A stretch of 64,000 nucleotides of DNA from a virus. Positions 1,485 to 53,157 of the stretch are shown here, one piece after another. The notes under the pieces are model-generated. The model saw nothing but the letters and a program-made list of their open reading frames with translations, ran no database searches and was not told the DNA's origin. The stretch covers positions 32,001-96,000 of the IMG/VR virus record IMGVR_UViG_3300033148_008025; one strand, written 5' to 3'. The position numbers were made by a program, and so were the translations under genes. Every line of letters starts with the position of its first letter. Positions within the stretch are counted from its first letter, which is position 1.

Positions 1485-1714
1485 TTCCTTTGTTTGAGGC
1501 CTGCAACAAATCCGTAGTTGGCCATGGCGGCGCACAAGACAGACTTGTCATCGCACAGGTTTTGCGCAACGGTGCTGAAAACCCGGAGGTTTTCGTTGGC
1601 CAGGTCTGCGGCTTCCTCTTCTGAATCGAGGTGTAGTAGGTTTTTGATATTGCGGATGCAGGCGATGGCCATGTTCTTGCCACCAACTTCTTTGATCTTG
1701 TCTAGGTCTTCCAT
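1481..1714 (-). CDS. hypothetical protein (77 aa)
   Basis: First gene of the block; GGAG SD; ATGA coupling to the next gene. Confidence 0.65.
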   Translation of the reverse strand: MEDLDKIKEVGGKNMAIACIRNIKNLLHLDSEEEAADLANENLRVFSTVAQNLCDDKSVLCAAMANYGFVAGLKQRK

Positions 1715-1741
1715 TGGACTCCCGTGCTTGTGGTTCAGGGC

Positions 1742-1750
1742 CCTTATGCC
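1742..1750 (-). promoter_or_regulatory. GGCATAAGG motif, putative phage-specific promoter
   Basis: Exact copy 27 nt upstream of the ATG at 1714; one of five intergenic copies. Confidence 0.65.
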
Positions 1751-1791
1751 ATCAGATTGCAGCTGGGTTGCTGGTATGCGACGATACGGTC

Positions 1792-3027
1792 ATGAACCAT
1801 TTCCTATCTGGCTTCACCGATGAATTGGTGAAGATCGCAGTAGACAGAGAGTCTGGAAAAGGAAACGGGCTTGGCCTCCTGGAGGCCGGGATGGTGGCAT
1901 CGACAATTGCTCCATTTATGGGGCTCATCGGAGAAGAGAAGATTCTCCACGACCCACATGTGCAGAAAAGCATCATGAGGTTTACCTCACTGGAATCCCT
2001 CGAGCGTCACGCAAGGCCTGGAGATATTGTCCTGATGAGCGGGCCCAGAGATCCTACCAGGCCTGTTACCACCGCAATATCCGGAACAGACTGGTCTCAT
2101 GCACAGCCGGTCGTTGGCGTTCGAGACGGAAAGGCCGTAACCCTCAGCGCAGGTCGATTCAACAGAAGAGATGTGAAGGTAAAAACTCGTGCAGATTTCA
2201 TGAAGATGGCTCCAACGCTGGCCAAAGATATGAAGTCATGGGGATATACCGATGCAGTAATTCTTCGTCCAAAAAACAAGATGAGCAATACAGACTTAAA
2301 GAAGTTTGTTGACGAGGTCGTCGATCGGTCGCGTATGCCGTGGGATGCAAAGAAAGCAGTTAGCGGGGTTGCTAAAGATCTGTTTATTCCAAAGCGAATG
2401 GTTTCAGAAGGGGCTCTTAAAAAAATAGAAGGTCAGACGATGATTCGCTATGGGAACATTGTAGATCCTGTTTCCGGCAAGAAGGTTCGAGTCCCAATGA
2501 CGTGCAAGGGAAACACCTGTTCGGGCTTAAGTGCACAGGCAGCTAGAATTGCTGGCGGTGGAGCAATCCTAGGCAGCAAGCTCCCAGCAGATATATTGCC
2601 AGCAGACTTCGTTCGTTCGAAACAGTATCGTCCAGTAGGCGCAGTGATTAACAAAAGCAAGCTTCCAGTAAAAATCCTTCCATACCTAACCCGAGCGGGA
2701 GTGGGTACCGCTGCCGCCGGAGGCATCTACGCAGCCCATGAGCGACCGGAACTGTTGGCAGCAGGAGTAGGAGCAGCGGGAGGATCTGCGCTCCAGGGGG
2801 CGTTGACAAGGCGGATAGGAAAGGCAATGGGGCTATCCTACGGACAGACAAGTCGTAAGATTCCAAATCTGATGAGATCAGTGCAAAAAACAGTGTCCTC
2901 ACCCACGACCATTGGCAGGGTAAGCCCAATCTTAAAATATCTAGCAATGGCAACTCCGATGAGAGTTCTTGGCGGGCTAGCTGCCCTCAAGGTGGGCCGG
3001 GTAGCGCTTGGCCGAGAAGGAGAATAG
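1792..3027 (+). CDS. permuted NlpC/P60 (YiiX/YebB-like) papain-fold protein with DELxKxA leader
   Basis: PGDIVL...WSHA (His), MPWD, CSGL (Cys), ILPADF in the permuted His-before-Cys order; N-terminus MNHFLSGFTDELVKIA. Confidence 0.7.
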   Translation: MNHFLSGFTDELVKIAVDRESGKGNGLGLLEAGMVASTIAPFMGLIGEEKILHDPHVQKSIMRFTSLESLERHARPGDIVLMSGPRDPTRPVTTAISGTDWSHAQPVVGVRDGKAVTLSAGRFNRRDVKVKTRADFMKMAPTLAKDMKSWGYTDAVILRPKNKMSNTDLKKFVDEVVDRSRMPWDAKKAVSGVAKDLFIPKRMVSEGALKKIEGQTMIRYGNIVDPVSGKKVRVPMTCKGNTCSGLSAQAARIAGGGAILGSKLPADILPADFVRSKQYRPVGAVINKSKLPVKILPYLTRAGVGTAAAGGIYAAHERPELLAAGVGAAGGSALQGALTRRIGKAMGLSYGQTSRKIPNLMRSVQKTVSSPTTIGRVSPILKYLAMATPMRVLGGLAALKVGRVALGREGE

Positions 3028-3029
3028 GC

Positions 3030-5129
3030 ATGAACGGCATCCTTACAGGCTTCATAGATGAACTGACAAAGGTATCATCCCAAAAAGAGAAAGAAGCGCC
3101 ACTATACGAAGCAATCATGCGTCCAGGCGAACATGGTCGCGTTAGTATGAAACCGGCTGGTGCAGCACTCGGTGGAACAGTTGGAGCCCTGCTTGGAGAT
3201 TTTGCATCAAAGCGTGCAAGACTTGGCAGCAAATCCAGTATTGGAACAAAGCTTATTCGCGGTAGTGGTATTGCAGGCTTACTGGCTGGAGCCTTGCTTG
3301 CGCCAGGCGGAAAGAAGTCAAAGAAACGATCCGTCGACCTGATTCCGTCGAATCGCGCAGCAAGGGAGATTGCTGCAAAGTCAAAATCACACGAAAAGAA
3401 AGCTGCAGCAAAAACCCACCTAACGCCAGACTCATCCAACATTAACGGTTTCAGCTATGACCCCAGAGCTAAGCAGCTGACCGTGACGTTCAAGGGCGGA
3501 TCGACGTACAGATACAGGGGTGTACCGCAAGCCACCTTTCGCTCACTCAGGCGAAACAAGAGCGCCGGCAAGACACTTAACCGTCTCGTCAAAGCCAGGG
3601 ACTACGAGTACGAGAAGATTGCCAAGAAGAAAAAGCAGAAGTCCTACAAGTGCAAGTTCTGTAAGGACCAAGCTACCAAGGGCGTCATATGGGCCGAAGG
3701 CCGCGGCATCGTTCCCTGCTGTGATAAGCATCTTGGCAAAGGCAAATCTTCTATTGATGATCCGAAAGACATCGACCTGATTCGGGACCTGACAAAGCAG
3801 GCTGGATCTAAATTCACCACCTTCCTTCGGACAGCTCCAGAAGAAAAGCTTTTGGCAGCCCTCGAGAATGTTGTCGGATCTGCCAGGCCAACCTATTACA
3901 AGTCCCTCGATATTACGAAGTTCATGAACTATCTCAGGGGTGGCGGTGACAAGTTTGCTCCGAGCATTTCTTCGATGAAGAGAGATGAATTGGTTAAGGC
4001 CGTTCGCCAGCGACTCGCCGCAGGGTTTCCGAAACAGAGGCTTCGGCATACGAAGGATGGCGATGTTGAATTTGGGCGTAGTCTGAAGGAACGTGCGGGA
4101 TCTAAGATGATCCGAGTTAGTCATGGTGGAAGCGCATCCGAGCTTGAGTCGATCATCAAGTATGGTCCCAACGCGGCGGTTCCTGTTGTCCCCGGTGCGG
4201 CTGGAAAAAAAGAAGTTGTCGGACTTTTTGTTCATAAACCCTCCGATGTTTTAGCGGAACGTCTTCCAGGATACGCCAAGAGGCGGGTGGCCTACGCCGG
4301 AGGAAAACCCGCAGTTCTTAGTTTTGATATCCCAGAGAGATTGATTTCTGAGGGGGGGCGAATTGGGGGTGGTGAACATATAGTTCCGGCAAGCCTTTGG
4401 CGGTACGCGAAGAACACAAAGATCACCAAAGTAGGAGGCTCCTTGCTTGAAAAGACTTCTTCAGATGCACAGCGAGCATTCTACGCTTCAACCAGCATCT
4501 CCCCCTACTACGCCAAAAGGCAGCGCGACAAGCGCAAGCAGCAGGAGATCAATCGCCTGTTGAAGAAAGCAGGCTTCTTGCGCGAGCGCGTCCGCGAAGG
4601 TAACTCGAGTGATCTTATTGGTCGCATGACGAAAAAACGCCGTCAAATCGAGAAGATAGCCGGTGCGTGCGTGAAGACTCTTACCTGGGGAGGACTCACG
4701 ATGAAGTTTGAGTACCTCAAGGATGACATCAGGTCTGGTACCGGGGAAGGCGGAAAGAAGTGGTCTCGTAAAATGAAGGACTGCTATGGATACATTCCCA
4801 ACACCTACGGCAAGGGCGCAGATGGGGAAGCCATTGACGTCTACTTCCAGCCCGATCCGACTGACGGCCCGGTCTTCAAGATCCGTCAGCTAAAAAAAGA
4901 GGGTGGCTATGACGAGGACAAGTTTATGGTCGGGTATGGAACATCCAAGGCGGCAAAAGCAGCCTTCGACAGGAACATGCCAGCATGGGCCTTTGGTGAT
5001 ATCACCAGTCTATCAATGAAAAGTTTTCGAACACTTGTAGGCCAAAGCGGCAGCAAGATTCGTGTACCATCAGACAGCAACGCCGAGCGCGAGCGGGTTC
5101 GCCGGGCCATGGAAAGAAAATCAGCATGA
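3030..5129 (+). CDS. polyvalent multidomain protein: leader, Gly-rich helices, KTSC domain, Zn finger, ART-like domain, InPase-like domain
   Basis: KTSC: SSNINGFSYD...LTVTFKGGSTYRYRGVP...SAG. Zn finger: CKFC...CCDKH. ART-like: VSHGGS...IIKYG...GLFV...GYA...EHIV. InPase-like: W...M...YGYIPNT...DGEAIDVY...YDEDKFMVGY. Confidence 0.75.
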   Translation: MNGILTGFIDELTKVSSQKEKEAPLYEAIMRPGEHGRVSMKPAGAALGGTVGALLGDFASKRARLGSKSSIGTKLIRGSGIAGLLAGALLAPGGKKSKKRSVDLIPSNRAAREIAAKSKSHEKKAAAKTHLTPDSSNINGFSYDPRAKQLTVTFKGGSTYRYRGVPQATFRSLRRNKSAGKTLNRLVKARDYEYEKIAKKKKQKSYKCKFCKDQATKGVIWAEGRGIVPCCDKHLGKGKSSIDDPKDIDLIRDLTKQAGSKFTTFLRTAPEEKLLAALENVVGSARPTYYKSLDITKFMNYLRGGGDKFAPSISSMKRDELVKAVRQRLAAGFPKQRLRHTKDGDVEFGRSLKERAGSKMIRVSHGGSASELESIIKYGPNAAVPVVPGAAGKKEVVGLFVHKPSDVLAERLPGYAKRRVAYAGGKPAVLSFDIPERLISEGGRIGGGEHIVPASLWRYAKNTKITKVGGSLLEKTSSDAQRAFYASTSISPYYAKRQRDKRKQQEINRLLKKAGFLRERVREGNSSDLIGRMTKKRRQIEKIAGACVKTLTWGGLTMKFEYLKDDIRSGTGEGGKKWSRKMKDCYGYIPNTYGKGADGEAIDVYFQPDPTDGPVFKIRQLKKEGGYDEDKFMVGYGTSKAAKAAFDRNMPAWAFGDITSLSMKSFRTLVGQSGSKIRVPSDSNAERERVRRAMERKSA

Positions 5130-5806
5130 GTTACAATTTTTTGAACGGTTTCGTCGACGAGCTCACAAAGACCGCGGGTCCAACCGACCTGGCCAAGCCT
5201 CCCGGGCAGACCATGGAGGTGAAGATTCCTAAGCCCCCCAAGCCACTCCAGGCGCCCAAGCCGGCTACCATGGAGAGCAAACCTGCCGCCGTTCTTCCCA
5301 AGACTGCAGGTGTGAAAGACATGCTTGGCACCATGGGCTCCGCAGTCAAGAAGATGGTGACTAGCGATAAGGCTGTTCGTGCCAAGGTGAAAGCTGGGGA
5401 CTTGGCAGCCAAGGCAAAGTTTCACGGAGCCAAGGCCAAAGGAAGAGGGCAAGACCTTGCCGGAAAAGCTAAGGCATATGCTTCGACAAAGGGCCACCAG
5501 TGGAATGCACTTTCTCCTGCAGAGAAGAAGCGCTACATGGCTATCGCCGGTGCCGGAACGGCCGCCGGTGTTGCTGCTGGGGCCGGTGCATCGAAGCTTG
5601 CTGGCGAAGATAAGGCTGGCGCAATGATCAAGGAAGTGCTTGAAAACGCCAAAGGGAAAAATCGTCCTGAGTCCAAGTCCGGCGATTCCGTTGGGGGCGA
5701 GTACGGTGCGGGTGGGGGTCTTTCAAACTTTGAAGGCAAGACTGCTCCAAAGTTCAACAAGAAGTACAATCCCACCGACATGCCTCAGGCGTTCGGAAAG
5801 CGATAG
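5126..5806 (+). CDS. Lys/Ala-rich putative internal head protein with DELxKxA leader
   Basis: MSYNFLNGFVDELTKTAG; basic Lys/Ala-rich region; Gly/Ala hydrophobic helix; ATGA overlap. Confidence 0.6.
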   Translation: MSYNFLNGFVDELTKTAGPTDLAKPPGQTMEVKIPKPPKPLQAPKPATMESKPAAVLPKTAGVKDMLGTMGSAVKKMVTSDKAVRAKVKAGDLAAKAKFHGAKAKGRGQDLAGKAKAYASTKGHQWNALSPAEKKRYMAIAGAGTAAGVAAGAGASKLAGEDKAGAMIKEVLENAKGKNRPESKSGDSVGGEYGAGGGLSNFEGKTAPKFNKKYNPTDMPQAFGKR

Positions 5807-5811
5807 CACTT

Positions 5812-6438
5812 ATGATTTTCAGAGTGCTCAGGATCGTAGTGATCCTCCTGATTGCCGCTGGTGGAATCCTTGGAATCTACAGCATGCATCACAGGGAAAC
5901 CCTACATGAGCCAACGTGGGATGAGAGGGGAATTGCTGTCGAGCACAGGAGGGGAGATATTCCTCTTTCCGTTTTCGTTGATCGAAGCTTTGGAGGCGAC
6001 CACGTAGCAAGCGCAGAGAGAGCGATTTCCAGTATCAACCGTGATGCCGGATGTACTCTTATGAGCCCAATCTATCTGCTGGACAATGCTGATATCCATA
6101 TTCGCCATGAGGCTTGCGATGAGGGTTCGGAGTTTCAGCCAAATCACCCAGGCTGCACCTGGTCAAATCCTTCCAGGGAGCGCACGATTATCCAGGTTGG
6201 ACAACCAGGTAATACGACAACATCGTACTTAATCTTCTACCACGAACTCACACATGCCATAGGCTTGGCTCACGACGGCGTATATGTCGTCCCAGGGCGA
6301 GGAGATGAATCCTTGATGTTTGTCCCGATCACTGCCAACAACGCCCACGAGCACAGCTACAGGCTTGGTATAGGGAAGCATCTGCCTTCCATGTCTGACA
6401 AAGATCGAAGCGTGCTGAAACAGCGATACTGTGAGTAG
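5812..6438 (+). CDS. membrane-anchored matrixin-like (metzincin) zinc metalloprotease
   Basis: N-terminal hydrophobic helix; HELTHAIGLAH (HExxHxxGxxH); Met-turn SLM. Confidence 0.85.
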   Translation: MIFRVLRIVVILLIAAGGILGIYSMHHRETLHEPTWDERGIAVEHRRGDIPLSVFVDRSFGGDHVASAERAISSINRDAGCTLMSPIYLLDNADIHIRHEACDEGSEFQPNHPGCTWSNPSRERTIIQVGQPGNTTTSYLIFYHELTHAIGLAHDGVYVVPGRGDESLMFVPITANNAHEHSYRLGIGKHLPSMSDKDRSVLKQRYCE

Positions 6439-15875: not shown

Positions 15876-16253
15876 ATGACTTCGCACCTTATGATTGGTT
15901 TTACTGATGAGCTTGTGAAGACTGCCGGAAAGACTTCTCTTTTTACGAAAGCACTAAGGCTTGCAGCGAAGACCGAAAAAGGGAAAACCAAAGCCGGCAA
16001 AAAGGTTATTTCCCGTTTAGCCAAAACGCAATCGAAGACGAAGCACGCCCTCAAAGACCCGGAGTATCGGAAAAGGATTGCCGCTGGCGCTACCCTTGGA
16101 GCTGGAACGGGCGCAGCCACGGCAGTGGCTGGCGGAGGTGATGACTCTGTACTAAAAAGGGCTCTCAAAGGAGCTGGAACGGGTGCGGTGGGTGGAACCA
16201 TCACCGGAGCTGCATTCCCGGGCTGGTTCGCTAGGTCTAATCGCCACCTCTAG
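15876..16253 (+). CDS. small basic protein with DELxKxA leader and Gly-zipper helices
   Basis: MTSHLMIGFTDELVKTAG; Lys-rich middle; two Gly/Ala hydrophobic segments. Confidence 0.7.
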   Translation: MTSHLMIGFTDELVKTAGKTSLFTKALRLAAKTEKGKTKAGKKVISRLAKTQSKTKHALKDPEYRKRIAAGATLGAGTGAATAVAGGGDDSVLKRALKGAGTGAVGGTITGAAFPGWFARSNRHL

Positions 16254-47558: not shown

Positions 47559-48710
47559 ATGACAATTGCCGCAGCCGTTCTCGATTTTTATGACGATAGC
47601 TCGAAAGAGTTGATGACTAAGATTTCATCACCGCAAGGATTTGGTGATACACAGGTCAACGTCCTCACCCCTGAAGAAATGAGTCGTCTCCCCGACTCTG
47701 ACTTCGGACTTGTGATCTTCACGAAGAGGGCTTCCGTACTTAAAAAGTACCCCGTGAACGATCCTGGAAATGCCTGGCTATCAGCTCAGTATTTCGATCA
47801 GACTCATACCAAGCTAGCATTCCCTGCAAGATTTGTTGCAGCAAAGTTCATCAAGCAAGCCTGCGATGCATACGGAGTTCCAGCATCTCCACGAGTGGAA
47901 GCCTACGCAGCTCGTGTGGAACCAGGAGAAGCACAGGAAAACGTTTTTTCCGAAGGATCAGAAAGTCGATGGATGCTTCGAAAGCTTGCCAACCAGGAGT
48001 TCCTGGAAAAACAAGCATCCGCGACCGAGGTCAATGCACTTGTCCACATGCCCGATGAACACTTTGCACTGGTAGTACAGACCGGCGACGGGAGCGTTAT
48101 TCGAAAATACGCAATGCCCGATGGCGGTCACGTCCTTAGAGCAGCTGAATACTTCGACAAGTACGCAATGGACCTAGCCCCTTCCCATCGACATCGCTTT
48201 GCGACATCGGTTCAGAATCGCGCAGAGGAATTAGACGTAGACATATCAGGGAACACGATGCTTTGTAAGTGGGCTGGGGAAACATGGAGTCGCCACGTTC
48301 ACGCACACCTTGAGCAGCGAAAGTCCCTACTTCCTCATCCTGAGCATGAAGGGGCTCGCGGAATATTGGACAAGCTCGCAGCATCCATAGCAGAGACTAC
48401 GCCATCAGATATGGCCTCGGCACTTGAAACCTTTGACGAAGCTACTGGCCTGTCAAAGTATCATGACCGAGGGCTTGCAGATCCGTACTCGAGCACAATG
48501 AACAAAGTTGCTTCATCGTGGTCAGCGGAAGTCGATGGGCAAACGATCACAGAAGCAGACCTGAGGAAAGTTGCATCGACGAAGAAGCTAGCTGGATACC
48601 TTGGGGATACTTTCACAAAGCAGTTCGCGAAAAATCCTGTCGAAATATTCGAATCACTACCAAGTCCCGAGAAATCCATGATCAAGCAGGTCATTAACGG
48701 CGAGGCGTAG
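47559..48710 (+). CDS. putative head morphogenesis protein with a duplicated domain
   Basis: LPDSDFGLV...KKYPVND and MPDEHFALV...RKYAMPD repeats (DUF6582-like from memory); several K-x-A/S sites; AGGAG SD. Confidence 0.55.
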   Translation: MTIAAAVLDFYDDSSKELMTKISSPQGFGDTQVNVLTPEEMSRLPDSDFGLVIFTKRASVLKKYPVNDPGNAWLSAQYFDQTHTKLAFPARFVAAKFIKQACDAYGVPASPRVEAYAARVEPGEAQENVFSEGSESRWMLRKLANQEFLEKQASATEVNALVHMPDEHFALVVQTGDGSVIRKYAMPDGGHVLRAAEYFDKYAMDLAPSHRHRFATSVQNRAEELDVDISGNTMLCKWAGETWSRHVHAHLEQRKSLLPHPEHEGARGILDKLAASIAETTPSDMASALETFDEATGLSKYHDRGLADPYSSTMNKVASSWSAEVDGQTITEADLRKVASTKKLAGYLGDTFTKQFAKNPVEIFESLPSPEKSMIKQVINGEA

Positions 48711-48711
48711 T

Positions 48712-49746
48712 GTGGGAAGACATAGCATCAACAGCGCAGAGGCGGGCTTCTTTAGCTCCCTCCTCTCCGAGGGAGCGTCTATCACCAAGGAAGCCGTATC
48801 ACTTGATAGTGAGACAGCGGAAGCATTGGGCGTTGCAACCGTATCCCCGAGCGTTCTCGACGAAATAGAGAACGAAGCGGAGAAAATTACACAGGAAAGC
48901 AACGCAGACGATGTTGAGCCAAAGCCTGAACCAGAAACATACAACCCATCGCCAGTAGAATTCCTACAGGAAAAAAAACCGGATCCGGAAAAGGCGAAGT
49001 CGGTCGAGCTCGACAAATACGATGGTGACGATACTCCCGCAGAGTCGTCAGATCCATCGCCTCCACTTCCGTCGAGGGAATCACACGGAAAGCTGTTTAC
49101 TGACAAGCGAGCTCATCCACTACAACTCTTTGACACCCTGAATATGAGGTACAGGGAGGACTGGGCTGAGTGGGAACCAGAGACCTTGCAGTGGGCAATC
49201 CGACGAGACTTTAGCCCGCTTGGCGAGCTAAGCCTCAACAAGATTCAGGCCCTGGGCGTTGCCGGAAGAACGAATGTTCCGTGGCTTGACTGGGATATTT
49301 TCGAAAACGCCGGACTTGCCTGGAACGACACCATTCCGATCTTTGGAGCATTCCAGGCTATGACTCCAATGCAAATTGCATTTGCAGTTCACATCCTAAA
49401 CTCGATCAGGAATGAAGAATTCTCTCACGAAGTTAATTCGTATATTGCTGCAATTCTGGATGATCATGGTTTCGTTTACGCCCCGAGCGAATGGTTTGCA
49501 GGTGCCCAGAACATCCTGAGTCGCGGAAGCAAGGTCATGGGGCTTCATGGACAGGTGGAAGATGCCTGGGGCAAAATCAAAAATGTCCCCCCCGAAACAG
49601 TTGAATGGGATTACAGCAATTCGCTGGATGTTCACCTGATGAAGATGGCTGTCATCAAGAAATACCTCGAGGGCCGGAAGCTTCTCCGGAGTAAAGTTCC
49701 CGGAGTAGTGATGGCCTCTACAACCACCGACACCCTTGTGCCATGA
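48712..49746 (+). CDS. hypothetical protein in the head operon
   Basis: 344 aa; acidic disordered N-terminus and Trp-rich folded C-terminus. Confidence 0.7.
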   Translation: MGRHSINSAEAGFFSSLLSEGASITKEAVSLDSETAEALGVATVSPSVLDEIENEAEKITQESNADDVEPKPEPETYNPSPVEFLQEKKPDPEKAKSVELDKYDGDDTPAESSDPSPPLPSRESHGKLFTDKRAHPLQLFDTLNMRYREDWAEWEPETLQWAIRRDFSPLGELSLNKIQALGVAGRTNVPWLDWDIFENAGLAWNDTIPIFGAFQAMTPMQIAFAVHILNSIRNEEFSHEVNSYIAAILDDHGFVYAPSEWFAGAQNILSRGSKVMGLHGQVEDAWGKIKNVPPETVEWDYSNSLDVHLMKMAVIKKYLEGRKLLRSKVPGVVMASTTTDTLVP

Positions 49747-49946
49747 TGAACAGCAAGGAAAGTGAAGAGTTTGAAAGTTCCGCCAGGGCTATTGCTGAAG
49801 AAATTTCCGCATTTAGGCGAGAATGGATCGATAGCGCAGCGGGCGACATACTCGACGAGATGGAAGACTTAGAAAAAGAAGGCTTCGACCCTGCACGAGG
49901 CAGGGGGCGAGGCCCCAGCTGGATGAACGGAGAACAACATGAGTAA
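49743..49946 (+). CDS. small acidic protein
   Basis: Overlaps both neighbours. Confidence 0.5.
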   Translation: MMNSKESEEFESSARAIAEEISAFRREWIDSAAGDILDEMEDLEKEGFDPARGRGRGPSWMNGEQHE

Positions 49947-51093
49947 ACATTTTGCATATTTGATGGATGACGACAGTTCAAACTTCTTCCAGAAGCTAGC
50001 CTGCGAAGAGGCTGACAGAGACCTTCTTCCAGCAACAGCGCCATTGCCGCTGGTGGAAAAAATTGCTGCAGCCAAGGGCATTGACAAGGTTGCAGCCCGC
50101 GTTGATCGCGACATTCAGATTGTTAAAACCGCGGGAGTATCGGGACATAACTTTGGTTCCATTCGTCGTGGGCTAAATTACATCGACGGCCTGGTTCAGC
50201 GTGAACAGTTCAGCGTTGAGTCGGCTGGGACAGTTTTTGACAAGGTTGCATCCGCTGCTATCGAGCATGACCTATCCATTATCGAGCATGACCTTCGAGG
50301 TATGGTTGGCCACGAATACAATGAGTGGGTCGACAACACCGTCGCCGACATAGGACTAGACCTGGTTAAGGCCGCCGCACTCGACAAGGAAGCTCTTATC
50401 GGAGTTGTGCGGGCATTCAAGGCGACGAAAGGACTTAGCGGAGCCTCGCGGGCAAGGGCAGTTGCAAAGGCTCCAGGACAGTCATTCAAGCAGTGGCGAA
50501 CGGAAGCAGCAGTAGCCAAGCGCGGCAAGGCTGCCAAAAAGCTAAACAGGGCAACGAGGAAGGCTCAAACATCGGTTCTTTCTAGCGCAAAAGAAATGAG
50601 GACAGCAAGGAAGATCAAAGACCCGGCTATTCAGCGAAGTGTCATGCCAGGTATCAAGACGCAAGCTGCAAAAGATGCCGCTAAACATCAAAAGCGAATA
50701 CAAAAAGCATCCGACGCTCATTCAAAGCGACAAGCCAAAGTTCAACAGCGTGAAGCCATTGAGTCTGGCCGTAAGCCTGCCGCTAAGCCGAAAGACACAA
50801 AGCAGCTCTCAGACAAGATAGAGACGGCCCAAGGCAAGATGGAGACCGGGCGTAGCCAGGCAAAGGACAAAGCTGCCGATGCCGCAAAAGGAGGAAAGCC
50901 CTCGAAAGCGGAACCTCCGAAAACAGAGCCTGGGAAGACGAAGGCAAACGCGGGCGGCGAAAAAGAGACAGGAATGCTCGATTCACTGGGCAAGCTGAGG
51001 GATAAGGGGTGGAAGAACCTCAGCCCTGCTGAAAAAAACAAGGTTCTTCAGGCAGGAGCAGGAGCCTATGTTGCCAAAGAAACGCTAACCTAG
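49939..51093 (+). CDS. putative internal head protein with many K-x-A sites and a very basic C-terminal half
   Basis: FQKLA, VEKIA, IDKVA, IVKTAG, FDKVAS, LDKEA, then a Lys/Ala/Arg-rich region. Confidence 0.6.
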   Translation: MSKHFAYLMDDDSSNFFQKLACEEADRDLLPATAPLPLVEKIAAAKGIDKVAARVDRDIQIVKTAGVSGHNFGSIRRGLNYIDGLVQREQFSVESAGTVFDKVASAAIEHDLSIIEHDLRGMVGHEYNEWVDNTVADIGLDLVKAAALDKEALIGVVRAFKATKGLSGASRARAVAKAPGQSFKQWRTEAAVAKRGKAAKKLNRATRKAQTSVLSSAKEMRTARKIKDPAIQRSVMPGIKTQAAKDAAKHQKRIQKASDAHSKRQAKVQQREAIESGRKPAAKPKDTKQLSDKIETAQGKMETGRSQAKDKAADAAKGGKPSKAEPPKTEPGKTKANAGGEKETGMLDSLGKLRDKGWKNLSPAEKNKVLQAGAGAYVAKETLT

Positions 51094-51114: not shown

Positions 51115-53157
51115 ATGGCAAGCACGCAATCAGGATCTTTGGATCGACGTCGGGGAACGGTATATCCATCACCGTTCTTTGATATCGCCCAGACATATAT
51201 GCCGCCAACCGTGAAAGAACTTTTCCGGTGGTGTGCATATTTCTTTTACAAAGATCCAATGATCGGCTCGGTGGTCACGAAGATCGCCGAGTACCCTGTT
51301 ACGGACTTTGTCTACAACGCAAGCCAAAAACATGTTCGCGACGGGTGGAAAGAAATCCTCGAAGACACGCTGAACATGAAACCGTTCCTCATAGAGGTCG
51401 GGCTAGACTACTTCGCATACGGCAATGCATTCATCAGTATCAACCTCCCATTTACACGATGGATCCAGTGTCCCAGTTGTTCGAGTCTTTACAAACTGGA
51501 AGATGAATCCTTCAAGTTCTCGTTCAAAAATTTCGAGTTTCACTTCGAGTGCAAGGACTGTAAATCCAACGTAGTTGGGAAGATCGTCGACAATCCAATA
51601 AGAGATCGCACTGGAATCAATTTCGTCCGGTGGGACCCCAAGAACATAGACATTCACTACAATCCTATTACTGGAAAGTCTAAGTACCGGTACCAGATTC
51701 CAAACAAGATCAAGAAGGCAATCCACAAGGGTAGCCGTGAAATACTGGTCGACATCCCAGAGATTTTCTTCATCGCGCTCAAGAAGAAAAGGGACATACA
51801 GCTATCAGACCAGAACCTTTTTCACTTCAAGCGTCCAACGCTCGCAGAGCAAGACATGGGATGGGGGAAGCCACTAATCATCCATTCGATGGGAAGGATG
51901 TTCTACCTCTACGTTCTCAGAAGGGCTCAAGAGGCTATTGCCTTGCAACGCATAATGCCAATGGAATTCATCTTCCCGCAGGCAAATGCTCAGCAAGACC
52001 CATATCAGCACGTAAATTTATCCTCTTGGCAGGGAAACATAGAGAACGAAATTCACAAATGGAGGCAGGACCCCAATTACATCTCAATCGTTTCTGTTCC
52101 GCTCGGCTTTGAACGTCTTGGCGGTGATGGCAGAGCGCTTCTTCTTGGGCCTGAGATTGAAGTCACGAACAAGGAGATCACGGGTGGAATGGGAGTTCCG
52201 TTAGAATTCGTATTCGGAGGGCTGTCTTGGTCCGGATCCAGTGTTTCGCTACGAACACTGGAAAACCACTTCCTGATGTATCGCCGACTTCTTCTTCGAT
52301 TTGTAAACTGGTCAAAAAATCGAATCAGGCTGTACCTTGGACTTCCCGATATCGACATTGGATTCACAGAATTCAAGATGGCTGATGACGTTCAGCGAAA
52401 ACAAATTGTCATCCAGCTTAACGCTGCCAATAAAATCTCAGACCATACCATGCTCACAGAACTTGGATTTGATTACGACGATGAGCAGGAGATGATAGAG
52501 AAAGAGACCGATCAGCGAAACCAGATTCAGGCGATGACGATGAAGGCTCAGGCAGAAGCACAGGGTGAGTCATCCATCGTCTCCGCAAAGTATCAGGCAA
52601 GAGCGCAGGAAACTTTCCAGGAAGCACAGGGGGCGATCTCTGGCGGGCAACCTGGGCAAACAGAGCAAGCGCAGGCGCAGGTATCAGAAGGCCAGGAGCA
52701 GAACCCTGAAGAGGGCGGAGGGCAGCCTCGGCAACAACAAGGCGAACAACAACAGCCTCAGGACGGGCAACAGCAGATAACGCAAATCCCAACTTCTGCA
52801 CAAGGAATCGGAAAGTCCGAGGATCAGTCCATGGCTGCACAAGCCGCTGCACAGGGTGCTGCACAGGGCCAGGCTGCCGTCGAGGGACAGGCTGGCACTC
52901 AAGCTGGCGGGACTTCTACGGACGTCAAAGACGCCGCGGGGCAGGCAAAGGAGTGGGCCAACATAATCGCCAAGAAGCCACCAGAGGAGCAGGCAAAGAT
53001 TCTCGCAGAAATGGACAGAAAGTTGCCAGCCATGACAAGGCTGGTGAAACAACTTCTTGCGCAAATGGCTCCCGGAGAGACCTCGGGAGATGCCGCAAAG
53101 AAAATGAAGCCCCTTCCACAGAAGGCCCCACCCAGGCGTAACCAGGGGGTCATCTAA
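51115..53157 (+). CDS. portal protein with Zn-ribbon insertion and Gln-rich tail
   Basis: DPMIGSVV.KIAEYP; DYFAYGNAF; FHFK...WGKP; I.GGMGVP.EF..G..SWSGS; CPSC...CKDC. Confidence 0.7.
   Translation: MASTQSGSLDRRRGTVYPSPFFDIAQTYMPPTVKELFRWCAYFFYKDPMIGSVVTKIAEYPVTDFVYNASQKHVRDGWKEILEDTLNMKPFLIEVGLDYFAYGNAFISINLPFTRWIQCPSCSSLYKLEDESFKFSFKNFEFHFECKDCKSNVVGKIVDNPIRDRTGINFVRWDPKNIDIHYNPITGKSKYRYQIPNKIKKAIHKGSREILVDIPEIFFIALKKKRDIQLSDQNLFHFKRPTLAEQDMGWGKPLIIHSMGRMFYLYVLRRAQEAIALQRIMPMEFIFPQANAQQDPYQHVNLSSWQGNIENEIHKWRQDPNYISIVSVPLGFERLGGDGRALLLGPEIEVTNKEITGGMGVPLEFVFGGLSWSGSSVSLRTLENHFLMYRRLLLRFVNWSKNRIRLYLGLPDIDIGFTEFKMADDVQRKQIVIQLNAANKISDHTMLTELGFDYDDEQEMIEKETDQRNQIQAMTMKAQAEAQGESSIVSAKYQARAQETFQEAQGAISGGQPGQTEQAQAQVSEGQEQNPEEGGGQPRQQQGEQQQPQDGQQQITQIPTSAQGIGKSEDQSMAAQAAAQGAAQGQAAVEGQAGTQAGGTSTDVKDAAGQAKEWANIIAKKPPEEQAKILAEMDRKLPAMTRLVKQLLAQMAPGETSGDAAKKMKPLPQKAPPRRNQGVI

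Follow-up and report, generated by a model that had tools for sequence, protein, structure and literature searches.

Lysine-centred sites border the modules of a polyvalent phage protein, a candidate capsid-packaged precursor of separate effectors

The gene considered here, P0001, lies at 3030..5129 on the plus strand of a window of 64,000 nucleotides, which corresponds to bases 32001-96000 of one 121,454-bp IMG/VR virus record (IMGVR_UViG_3300033148_008025). We suggest that its 699-amino-acid product is a polyvalent cargo precursor, packaged into the capsid and cut by the head-maturation protease into separate effectors, and we put the probability of this reading at roughly 0.6. The suggestion starts from a short lysine-centred motif of the form [hydrophobic]-[E/T/L]-K-x-[A/S]-[small], seven copies of which are present in P0001 with Lys at residues 14, 123, 196, 256, 475, 512 and 542. 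All seven lie at module borders, and they are the same seven that had been listed in the original prediction, which was made from the DNA letters of the window. The gene itself is described from its open reading frame, ribosome-binding site, translation, Pfam matches and 21 homologues; the frame is open, begins with ATG and has the ribosome-binding site GAAGGAGAA upstream. Positions below are those of the window unless the genome, that is, the whole record, is named.

The leader (residues 1-14, 3030..3071) reads M-x5-GF-x-DEL-T-K and ends in site 1 at K14. It is followed by module 1 (residues 15-123, 3072..3398), which consists of Gly-rich hydrophobic helices resembling glycine zippers, with a hydropathy peak at residues ~71-95, and ends in site 2 (H-E-K123-K-A-A). 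Module 2 (residues 124-196, 3399..3617) contains a KTSC domain (Pfam PF13619, residues 134-190, nucleotides 3429-3599, E = 9.5e-14) and ends in site 3 (Y-E-K196-I-A). Module 3 (residues 197-256, 3618..3797) is a basic linker followed by a Zn-ribbon of the CxxC...CC..H type, with C208, C211, C230/C231 and H234 as its ligands according to their positions in the sequence, and ends in site 4 (L-T-K256-Q-A-G). Module 4 (residues 257-475, 3798..4454) combines a helical N-terminal part with an H-Y-E ART-fold core and ends in site 5 (L-E-K475-T-S-S). Two short basic peptides come next: peptide A (residues 476-512, 4455..4565), which is kept in homologues as ...AQRAFYAS..YYAKK.R... and ends in site 6 (L-L-K512-K-A-G), and peptide B (residues 513-542, 4566..4655), which contains F-L-R-E-R-V-R-E at residues 516-523 and ends in site 7 (I-E-K542-I-A-G). 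Module 5 (residues 543-699, 4656..5126) is an InPase domain of the polyvalent type (PF18823, residues 549-668, nucleotides 4674-5033, E = 1.3e-29) with a variable basic tail. All of these pieces are read from the plus strand. Among the PHROGs, module 5 matches minor head, virion and DarB-like proteins in their InPase parts, and 397 phage records match the InPase part of P0001 only. Pfam reports no peptidase family in P0001 at E <= 1, the zincin-motif proteins being separate genes. With at least two unrelated effector-type domains in one phage polypeptide, P0001 qualifies as a polyvalent protein.

The enzymatic nature of module 4 is predicted from structure; no Pfam ART family matched P0001. 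The ART-like core (residues ~360-469, nucleotides 4107-4436) forms the C-terminal ~110 residues of the 219-residue module. Its AlphaFold2 (AF2) model has a predicted local distance difference test score (pLDDT) of 78 overall and ~90 in the core, and the top Foldseek/VIA neighbours all have the ART fold, including Tpt1/KptA (Z 6.8), the Rhs toxin TreTu (Z 6.6) and PARPs. Structural neighbours in ESM-Atlas include Tox-ART-HYD1 and DUF3990 clusters, and 14 homologues all retain H365, Y415 and E449. We regard the ART fold of the H-Y-E clade, with a split beta-sheet, as a good assignment for module 4, which would make it an enzyme. The segment-by-segment identification that the original prediction had called for thus recovered all three domains that it had named: the KTSC domain (about 3424-3612) and the InPase domain (about 4683-5040) agree with their Pfam envelopes, and the ART-like domain (about 4107-4390) with the AF2 fold, the ART-only top neighbours in Foldseek/VIA and the invariant H-Y-E triad.

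How far the seven sites exceed chance depends on how the motif is written. The bare form K-x-A/S/G, in which the sites had originally been described, is too loose to be useful (30 observed versus 23 in shuffles, p = 0.05), whereas the fuller form with a hydrophobic residue at -2 and E/T at -1 is informative. The pattern [LIVMFYH][ETL]K.[AS][SAGK] occurs seven times in P0001, where the rest of the proteome predicts 0.29 and shuffled sequences 0.26 (range about 0.3-0.7), and 0 out of 2000 shuffles reach seven sites; the looser, less fitted pattern [ET]K.[AS][SAG] occurs five times against 0.35-0.40 expected. Because the site pattern was fitted after the fact, an independent position-specific scoring matrix (PSSM) was trained solely on 24 leaders taken from the N-termini of other proteins. 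This leader PSSM finds K196, K256, K467, K475 and K542 at a score of at least 6 and K512 at 5.2, and by the same measure P0001 is the most enriched protein of the genome (Poisson 5e-4). One further match, K623, falls inside the InPase domain and is probably not a site. In addition, 64 out of 108 internal ends of BLAST high-scoring segment pairs on P0001 lie within 10 amino acids of a site (21% expected), with the reservation that these ends are not independent events, and they cluster at residues 196-198, 253-260 and 465-475. The Pfam envelopes, the ends of these pairs and the homology of stand-alone ART proteins agree in placing the domain borders at the motif, a point on which the original prediction had staked itself.

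The same borders are where the family varies. The 21 metagenomic homologues (P0002-P0022) have a common frame of leader, Gly-rich segment, KTSC domain, Zn-ribbon and C-terminal InPase domain, while their middle cassettes differ, including GNAT, SNF2 helicase and cupin/AraC-type domains, a second InPase-like segment and others. These cassette families were read from precomputed Pfam lists of individual members, and the second InPase-like segment is present in some sequences. The architecture is therefore combinatorially variable, as in polyvalent proteins. The flanking sites are kept throughout: K-x-[AGS]-A before the KTSC domain in 19 of the 19 homologues that carry the anchor, Y-x-Y-E-K-[VIL]-[AGS] after it in 21/21, RDLTK-x-[SA] after the Zn-ribbon in all 16 homologues with that module, and [IL]-x-K-x-A-[GDS] before the InPase domain in 21/21; all five cassettes that are inserted ahead of the Zn-ribbon finish with K-[TK]-A-[AK]. 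The ART cassette (residues 257-475) is precisely missing in P0005 and P0006. These two homologues read DLTK|TSS where P0001 reads DLTK|QAG...(ART)...LLEK|TSS, and we therefore take the Lys itself to be the point of insertion. With residues 259-475 as query, an exhaustive HMMER search also found stand-alone ART-module proteins of 212-233 amino acids, which align from residue ~17-22 to the C-terminus. Their leaders (~17-22 amino acids) end in the motif, for example L-E-K-R-A-S, L-E-K-F-A-G or F-A-D-E-L-E-K-I-A, and at locus L015 the gene for a stand-alone ART module immediately precedes one for a homologue of the protease (37% identity, E = 5e-44). The comparison of homologues that had been proposed as a check on domain swapping thus shows sites that are kept and cassettes, stand-alone ART genes among them, that are exchanged precisely there.

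The leader is likewise not confined to P0001. The sequence GF-x-DEL-x-K-x-A is common to nine genes of the contig, one of which contains it internally; four lie in the window (P0001, its flanking genes at 1789-3027 and 5126-5806, and a gene at 15876-16253) and five more around the protease gene. It is kept in 18 out of 22 family members (P0001-P0022), and at the related metagenomic loci L005 and L007 seven to eight operon genes each begin with the same leader. The sequences that follow it are unrelated between genes and comprise a C92/NlpC-P60-like lead and zincin-motif, Gly-zipper and low-complexity basic proteins. The leader itself ends in the K-x-A motif; it is acidic and amphipathic and is not Sec- or Tat-like.

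Comparison with other phages requires a word on the source of the record, which is ~67% complete according to CheckV. TerL, the major capsid protein (MCP), the head protease and a baseplate wedge protein show it to be a tailed phage, probably a myovirus. Neither a megablast search of the phage collection with 12 kb nor a scan of viral contigs with P0001 found a near-identical relative. In searches with the protease and the MCP the closest cultured relatives were Salmonella phage Arash and three ~187-kb Vibrio phages, with Bacillus phage G more distant. Arash (OQ632216), an 'orphan' myovirus of 180.8 kb (PMC10585845), is the nearest cultured relative of the clade, which consists of uncultured myoviruses of ~160-180 kb; the metagenomic MCP homologues amount to 1907 matches, on contigs of up to 160-178 kb. 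No cleavage-site information was found in the literature on phage G. Arash gp23, annotated as a 'pyrophosphatase', was considered as a homologue of the InPase cargo and set aside: it is annotated beside a ribonucleotide reductase and a nucleotide kinase and lies on the strand opposite to the adjacent structural genes.

The candidate prohead protease, a 605-amino-acid protein recognized by PHROG, tblastn and AF2 fold, is encoded outside the window at genome 115873-117690. It matches PHROG 18299, 'head maturation protease' (E = 1.5e-6), and its tblastn matches are annotated prohead proteases. The AF2 model of its N-domain (pLDDT 77.5) has T4 gp21 (5JBL) as its top three Foldseek matches (probability 0.98-0.99, TMt 0.48-0.55), the next match following at probability 0.08, and His105 and Ser157 are invariant among 33 homologues. 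The Pfam S77 and S78 profiles have no match in the contig, and a phmmer search of the protease against PDB sequences found nothing. The modelled fold and these matches support the assignment of the 605-amino-acid protein as a prohead protease of the T4 gp21 fold. Several of the protease homologues P0200, P0205, P0206, P0219, P0224, P0229, P0236 and P0257 are ~1000 amino acids long and carry intein/LAGLIDADG Pfam domains, and in another homologue, the 822-amino-acid P0259, an InPase domain is fused to the protease.

The motif is found again in the neighbourhood of this gene. The protease, whose own C-terminal part carries the motif, is followed by acidic scaffold-like proteins crowded with it and then by the MCP (genome 120321-121214), an arrangement that is likewise motif-dense in Arash. 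The N-terminus of the MCP reads ...G-L-E-K-A-A-Q-A-G-G-A-F-V-R-E-R-L-R-E, and 116 out of 120 homologues, as well as Arash, retain G-[LIM]-x-K-[AT]-[AS] at residues ~22-27. Judged from the sequence, the motif would thus stand at the border of the N-terminal propeptide of the MCP as well as in the scaffold-like proteins. In the window, two motif-rich proteins of 383 and 384 amino acids (47559..51093, plus strand), the latter scaffold-like, have five and four PSSM sites (P = 0.001 and 0.007, respectively). Motif density was measured with [LIMVFY]-x-K-x-[AS]-[AGS], ignoring the first 20 residues of each protein. It reaches 4.4 sites per 1000 amino acids in the head and cargo proteins of this contig (odds ratio (OR) 7.4, P = 2e-11 versus all other genes), a comparison that is weakened because the head and cargo class was partly picked after the motif had been seen; the tail/baseplate block has 0.26 and the minus-strand genes 0.52 sites per 1000 amino acids. 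The head module of Arash (gp218-226) was defined by protease and MCP matches and by the annotation of the record. This definition does not depend on the motif and therefore gives the cleaner test: its density is 7.7 sites per 1000 amino acids against 0.59 in the rest of the genome (OR 13, P = 4e-15 versus the rest). Copies of [LIM]-x-K-x-A-[SAG] crowd Arash gp220-225 as well as the N-terminal ends of gp218, gp222 and the MCP, gp226.

By analogy with the internal proteins and Alt of T4, we propose the following course of events. The GF-x-DEL-x-K leader would direct the precursor into the assembling prohead. There the gp21-fold maturation protease would remove the leader and cut at the six sites within the protein ([L/I/Y/H]-[E/T/L]-K-x-[A/S]-[small]), which would release a membrane-active Gly-zipper piece, a nucleic-acid-binding KTSC piece, the Zn-ribbon, the H-Y-E ART-fold enzyme, the two basic peptides and the InPase. 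These pieces would then leave the capsid together with the DNA and do their work early in infection. We favor a cut directly after the Lys, because the spacing between the hydrophobic residue at -2 and the Lys at 0 parallels T4 [L/I]-x-E, which is cut after the Glu. A cut after the Ala/Ser is possible, since the small residue at +2 is conserved; herpesvirus assemblin cuts at A|S sites. From what is known of the families (PMC5512222, PMC9503650), the ART may modify host targets, the InPase may clear pyrophosphate or nucleotide signals, the KTSC domain may bind nucleic acid and the Gly-zipper may insert in the membrane.

Several points weigh against this proposal. That P0001 is packaged, cut and ejected, and what its modules do, is something that we infer, the packaging indirectly from the common leader, the leader-bearing neighbours in the head module and the motif that head proteins also carry. 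To our knowledge, trypsin-like cutting after Lys is not documented for proteases of the gp21 family. The structural matches are modest both for the protease (Foldseek E ~5e-3) and for the ART module (Z below 8, with a maximum of 6.8, and Foldseek E of at least 4e-3). A distance of ~70 kb separates the head module from the cargo operon, which is surrounded by minus-strand genes, and the GF-x-DEL-x-K leader is absent from Arash, being restricted to the clade. Mass spectrometry of Arash virions lists 116 proteins, without reported termini, and these include metabolic enzymes such as ribonucleotide reductase (PMC10585845); RNA polymerase subunits were the most abundant (PMC10585845).

Finally, conservation of the motif might reflect a linker or a recombination joint. 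P0001 might then be packaged or simply made intact, and K-x-A would be an inter-domain linker, a helix cap or a joint that eases the shuffling of cassettes. Some polyvalent proteins are indeed packaged unprocessed, such as the virion RNA polymerase of N4 (Iyer et al., PMC5512222), and the exchange of cassettes at a conserved short sequence is what one would expect from homologous recombination. However, a pure linker is not expected at the N-terminal border of the MCP. Nor would it be 7- to 13-fold enriched in the head-module proteins of two distant phages, or end a leader that is common to unrelated stand-alone proteins. We thus consider it unlikely, though deserving of attention, that the precursor stays whole.

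It is also conceivable that P0001 is cut, but by another enzyme or at another time: by the zincin encoded at 5812-6438, by the leader-bearing zincins of the head module, or by a host protease after ejection. Zincin (MPTase) domains have been proposed to process polyvalent proteins (Iyer et al., PMC5512222), a protein with HExxHxxGxxH closes the operon, and HExxH proteins of 481 and 272 amino acids are among the leader-bearing genes. The motif, however, is present also in the MCP, in the scaffold-like proteins and in the C-terminal part of the protease, the classic substrates of a prohead protease; the zincin matches are weak (E 0.04-0.2); and the 208-amino-acid zincin has a membrane anchor and no leader and is therefore unlikely to be inside proheads. 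Processing by the head-maturation protease seems to us a far better explanation, and any of these other enzymes improbable. Similarly improbable is that the leader proteins are not virion cargo and that the leader targets another compartment, such as the membrane, with P0001 acting in the producing cell: Gly-rich hydrophobic helices in several leader-bearing proteins and the position of the operon among non-structural genes would fit, but the leader is acidic and amphipathic rather than Sec- or Tat-like, the protease gene of the head module has leader-bearing genes on its flanks, InPase-type polyvalent domains are elsewhere fused to minor head, portal and virion proteins, and the protease homologue P0259 is itself fused to an InPase.

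If P0001 is such a packaged precursor, it combines features of several known systems. Polyvalent proteins with InPase domains have been inferred to be packaged in virions (Iyer, Burroughs, Anand, de Souza, Aravind 2017; PMC5512222), and an intrinsic zincin, frequent in them but not obligatory, has been proposed as their processor (PMC5512222). P0001 resembles them in its several unrelated effector-type domains, the phage-specific InPase (PF18823), the ART fold, the variable architecture of its homologues and its inferred co-delivery with DNA. It differs from them in that no MuF or MPTase/zincin domain was detected in it, nor any other domain known for anchoring or auto-processing, in that its modules are split by a motif common to head proteins, in its short and portable N-terminal leader, and in that the KTSC domain, Zn-ribbon and C-terminal InPase of its family form a fixed frame that receives cassettes.

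In phage T4, the internal proteins IPI-III and Alt are processed by gp21 at [L/I]-x-E, with the cut after the E, and a capsid targeting sequence (CTS) was reportedly described by Mullaney and Black in 1996 (cited in PMC10052503). Like the CTS, the leader found here is an N-terminal stretch of ~10-15 residues that is common to unrelated proteins (packaged ones in T4) and ends in a protease motif; the protease has the gp21 fold, and an ART enzyme is among the proposed cargo, as Alt is in T4. Unlike in T4, the leader reads GF-x-DEL-x-K, the site is centred on Lys with a conserved small residue at +2, the cargo is a polyprotein of several modules rather than a set of single-domain proteins, and the clade is unrelated to T4 in sequence. 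In T4 and SPN3US, many of the packaged proteins are cut by the prohead protease at short motifs, frequently in more than one place (PMC10052503). In phiKZ, 201phi2-1 and SPN3US the motif is [S/A/G]-x-E, and precursors of ejection proteins are cut more than once (PMC10052503, PMC5694885). The present phage is similar to phiKZ and SPN3US in having a gp21-like protease and many head and proposed ejection proteins with several motif copies, which would be cut at more than one place here as they are there; virions of the Arash type contain RNA polymerase, as those of the phiKZ type do. In SPN3US it is mainly N-terminal propeptides that are removed, whereas the sites of P0001 bracket enzymatic domains for which separate genes are found as well; this implies that one precursor releases several functional products.

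Polymorphic cargo and toxin proteins anchored by MuF are also known, and P0001 is like them in being modular, rapidly shuffled, proposed to be head-associated and equipped with an ART; MuF-ART fusions have been noted (PMC9503650). The Phage_Mu_F profile (PF04233) has no match in P0001 or in six frames of the ~67%-complete 121-kb contig, although distant versions could escape the profile, and the targeting of P0001 is presumably by the short leader instead of a MuF domain. Polyvalent proteins, the InPase domain and multi-site processing by gp21-like proteases are thus already known. New here are the Lys-centred motif, the portable leader in this clade, and enzymatic cassettes, placed between sites, that alternate between polyprotein and stand-alone leader-bearing forms.

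The neighbours of P0001 are of a similar kind. The upstream operon gene (1789..3027, plus strand) encodes a leader-bearing protein of 412 amino acids with a Gly-rich C-terminus. Its start is probably the ATG at 1789, the mechanically assigned TTG at 1714 being wrong. The product offers only a lead to the permuted-papain Peptidase_C92/NlpC-P60-like proteins (Atlas clusters of the C92 type, TM 0.57-0.76 by row), which suggests a possible candidate for an ejected cell-wall amidase; the reading of the frame 1714-3027 as a portal from its position was rejected, as it is this leader-bearing C92-like protein starting at 1789. Downstream, on the plus strand, lie a leader-bearing, low-complexity protein of 226 amino acids rich in K, A and P (5126..5806), with F-V-D-E-L-T-K-T-A-G at residues 9-18, and the last gene of the operon (5812..6438), whose 208-amino-acid product has an N-terminal membrane anchor and an HExxHxxGxxH zincin motif and is without the leader. 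Its Pfam matches are to metzincins, all of them weak (E 0.04-0.2). An isolated plus-strand gene at 15876..16253 encodes a leader-bearing protein of 125 amino acids with G-F-T-D-E-L-V-K-T-A-G. The cargo operon is syntenic at L005 (around P0019) and L007 (P0016), where genes for RadC, GrpE, DnaJ, cREC_REC and an SNF2 helicase flank it on the opposite strand.

Further features of the head region deserve mention. An open reading frame of 272 amino acids (L002:8113-8931, genome 113113-113931) has an HExxH zincin-like N-terminal part and, at ~172, an internal leader M-F-N-I-A-S-F-A-D-E-L-T-K with a Gly-rich segment; either this is another precursor with two modules, or two genes have been read as one. 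The adjoining protein of 481 amino acids carries the leader variant F-F-V-N-E-K-V-A-S together with HELGH. In the window, a candidate portal of 680 amino acids with weak PHROG portal matches lies at 51115-53157, next to the genes of the motif-rich proteins of 383 and 384 amino acids. The 384-amino-acid protein (49939-51093) had been considered as the MCP and was rejected, as its composition is scaffold-like and the real MCP lies at genome 120321-121214. The octapeptide pattern F-[VL]-R-E-R-[LV]-R-E has only two copies in six frames of the 121-kb contig, one at 4575-4598 (P0001 residues 516-523, after site 6) and one at L002:15393-15416 (MCP residues ~33-40, after its motif), and is present in 7 out of 22 family members. 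The F-L-R-E-R-V-R-E of P0001 might be a mimic of the MCP N-arm by which the cargo docks to shell or scaffold; it may also be a coincidence.

A short repeated element, C(C)TTATGCC, occurs as an 8/9-mer in 11 copies, all in a single orientation and mostly intergenic, against ~3.6 expected on both strands; six copies are in the window (1743, 7907, 18014, 21273, 55550 and 63608) and five more outside it. The 9-mer CCTTATGCC was considered as a promoter common to the cargo and structural operons, an idea that was dropped because all 11 copies also lie shortly 5' of minus-strand gene starts. Read on the minus strand, the element is GGCATAAGG, shortly upstream of those starts, and a promoter-like role in the minus-strand blocks is probable. 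It thus gives no support for co-regulation of the cargo and structural genes.

It would be tempting to go further and to speculate that a two-part portable code operates in this widespread uncultured clade, with the GF-x-DEL-x-K leader for encapsidation and [L/I/M]-x-K-x-[A/S] for release. Domains flanked by the code could then pass from stand-alone genes to polyproteins and back without losing their packaging and release, and P0001 would be the counterpart in a double-stranded DNA phage of the polyprotein of RNA viruses. The spacers would be functional, as basic peptides that condense DNA and as the mimic of the MCP N-arm, and the residue at which the protease cuts (P1) would have switched from Glu to Lys. 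This wider idea is tentative, and taken as a whole we rather doubt it.

If the code is true, the packaged and ejected effector set of a large and almost uncharacterised clade could be read from sequence; metagenomes contain at least 1900 MCP homologues of this clade, and Salmonella phage Arash is its one cultured member. It would mean that the head-maturation protease, instead of a peptidase domain of their own, can process polyvalent proteins, and that the exchange of cassettes at protease sites would explain how polyvalent proteins diversify. A Lys-centred specificity would be added to the gp21/assemblin family of proteases. The leader and site together might also serve as a tag for loading foreign proteins into capsids, as has been done with the T4 CTS.

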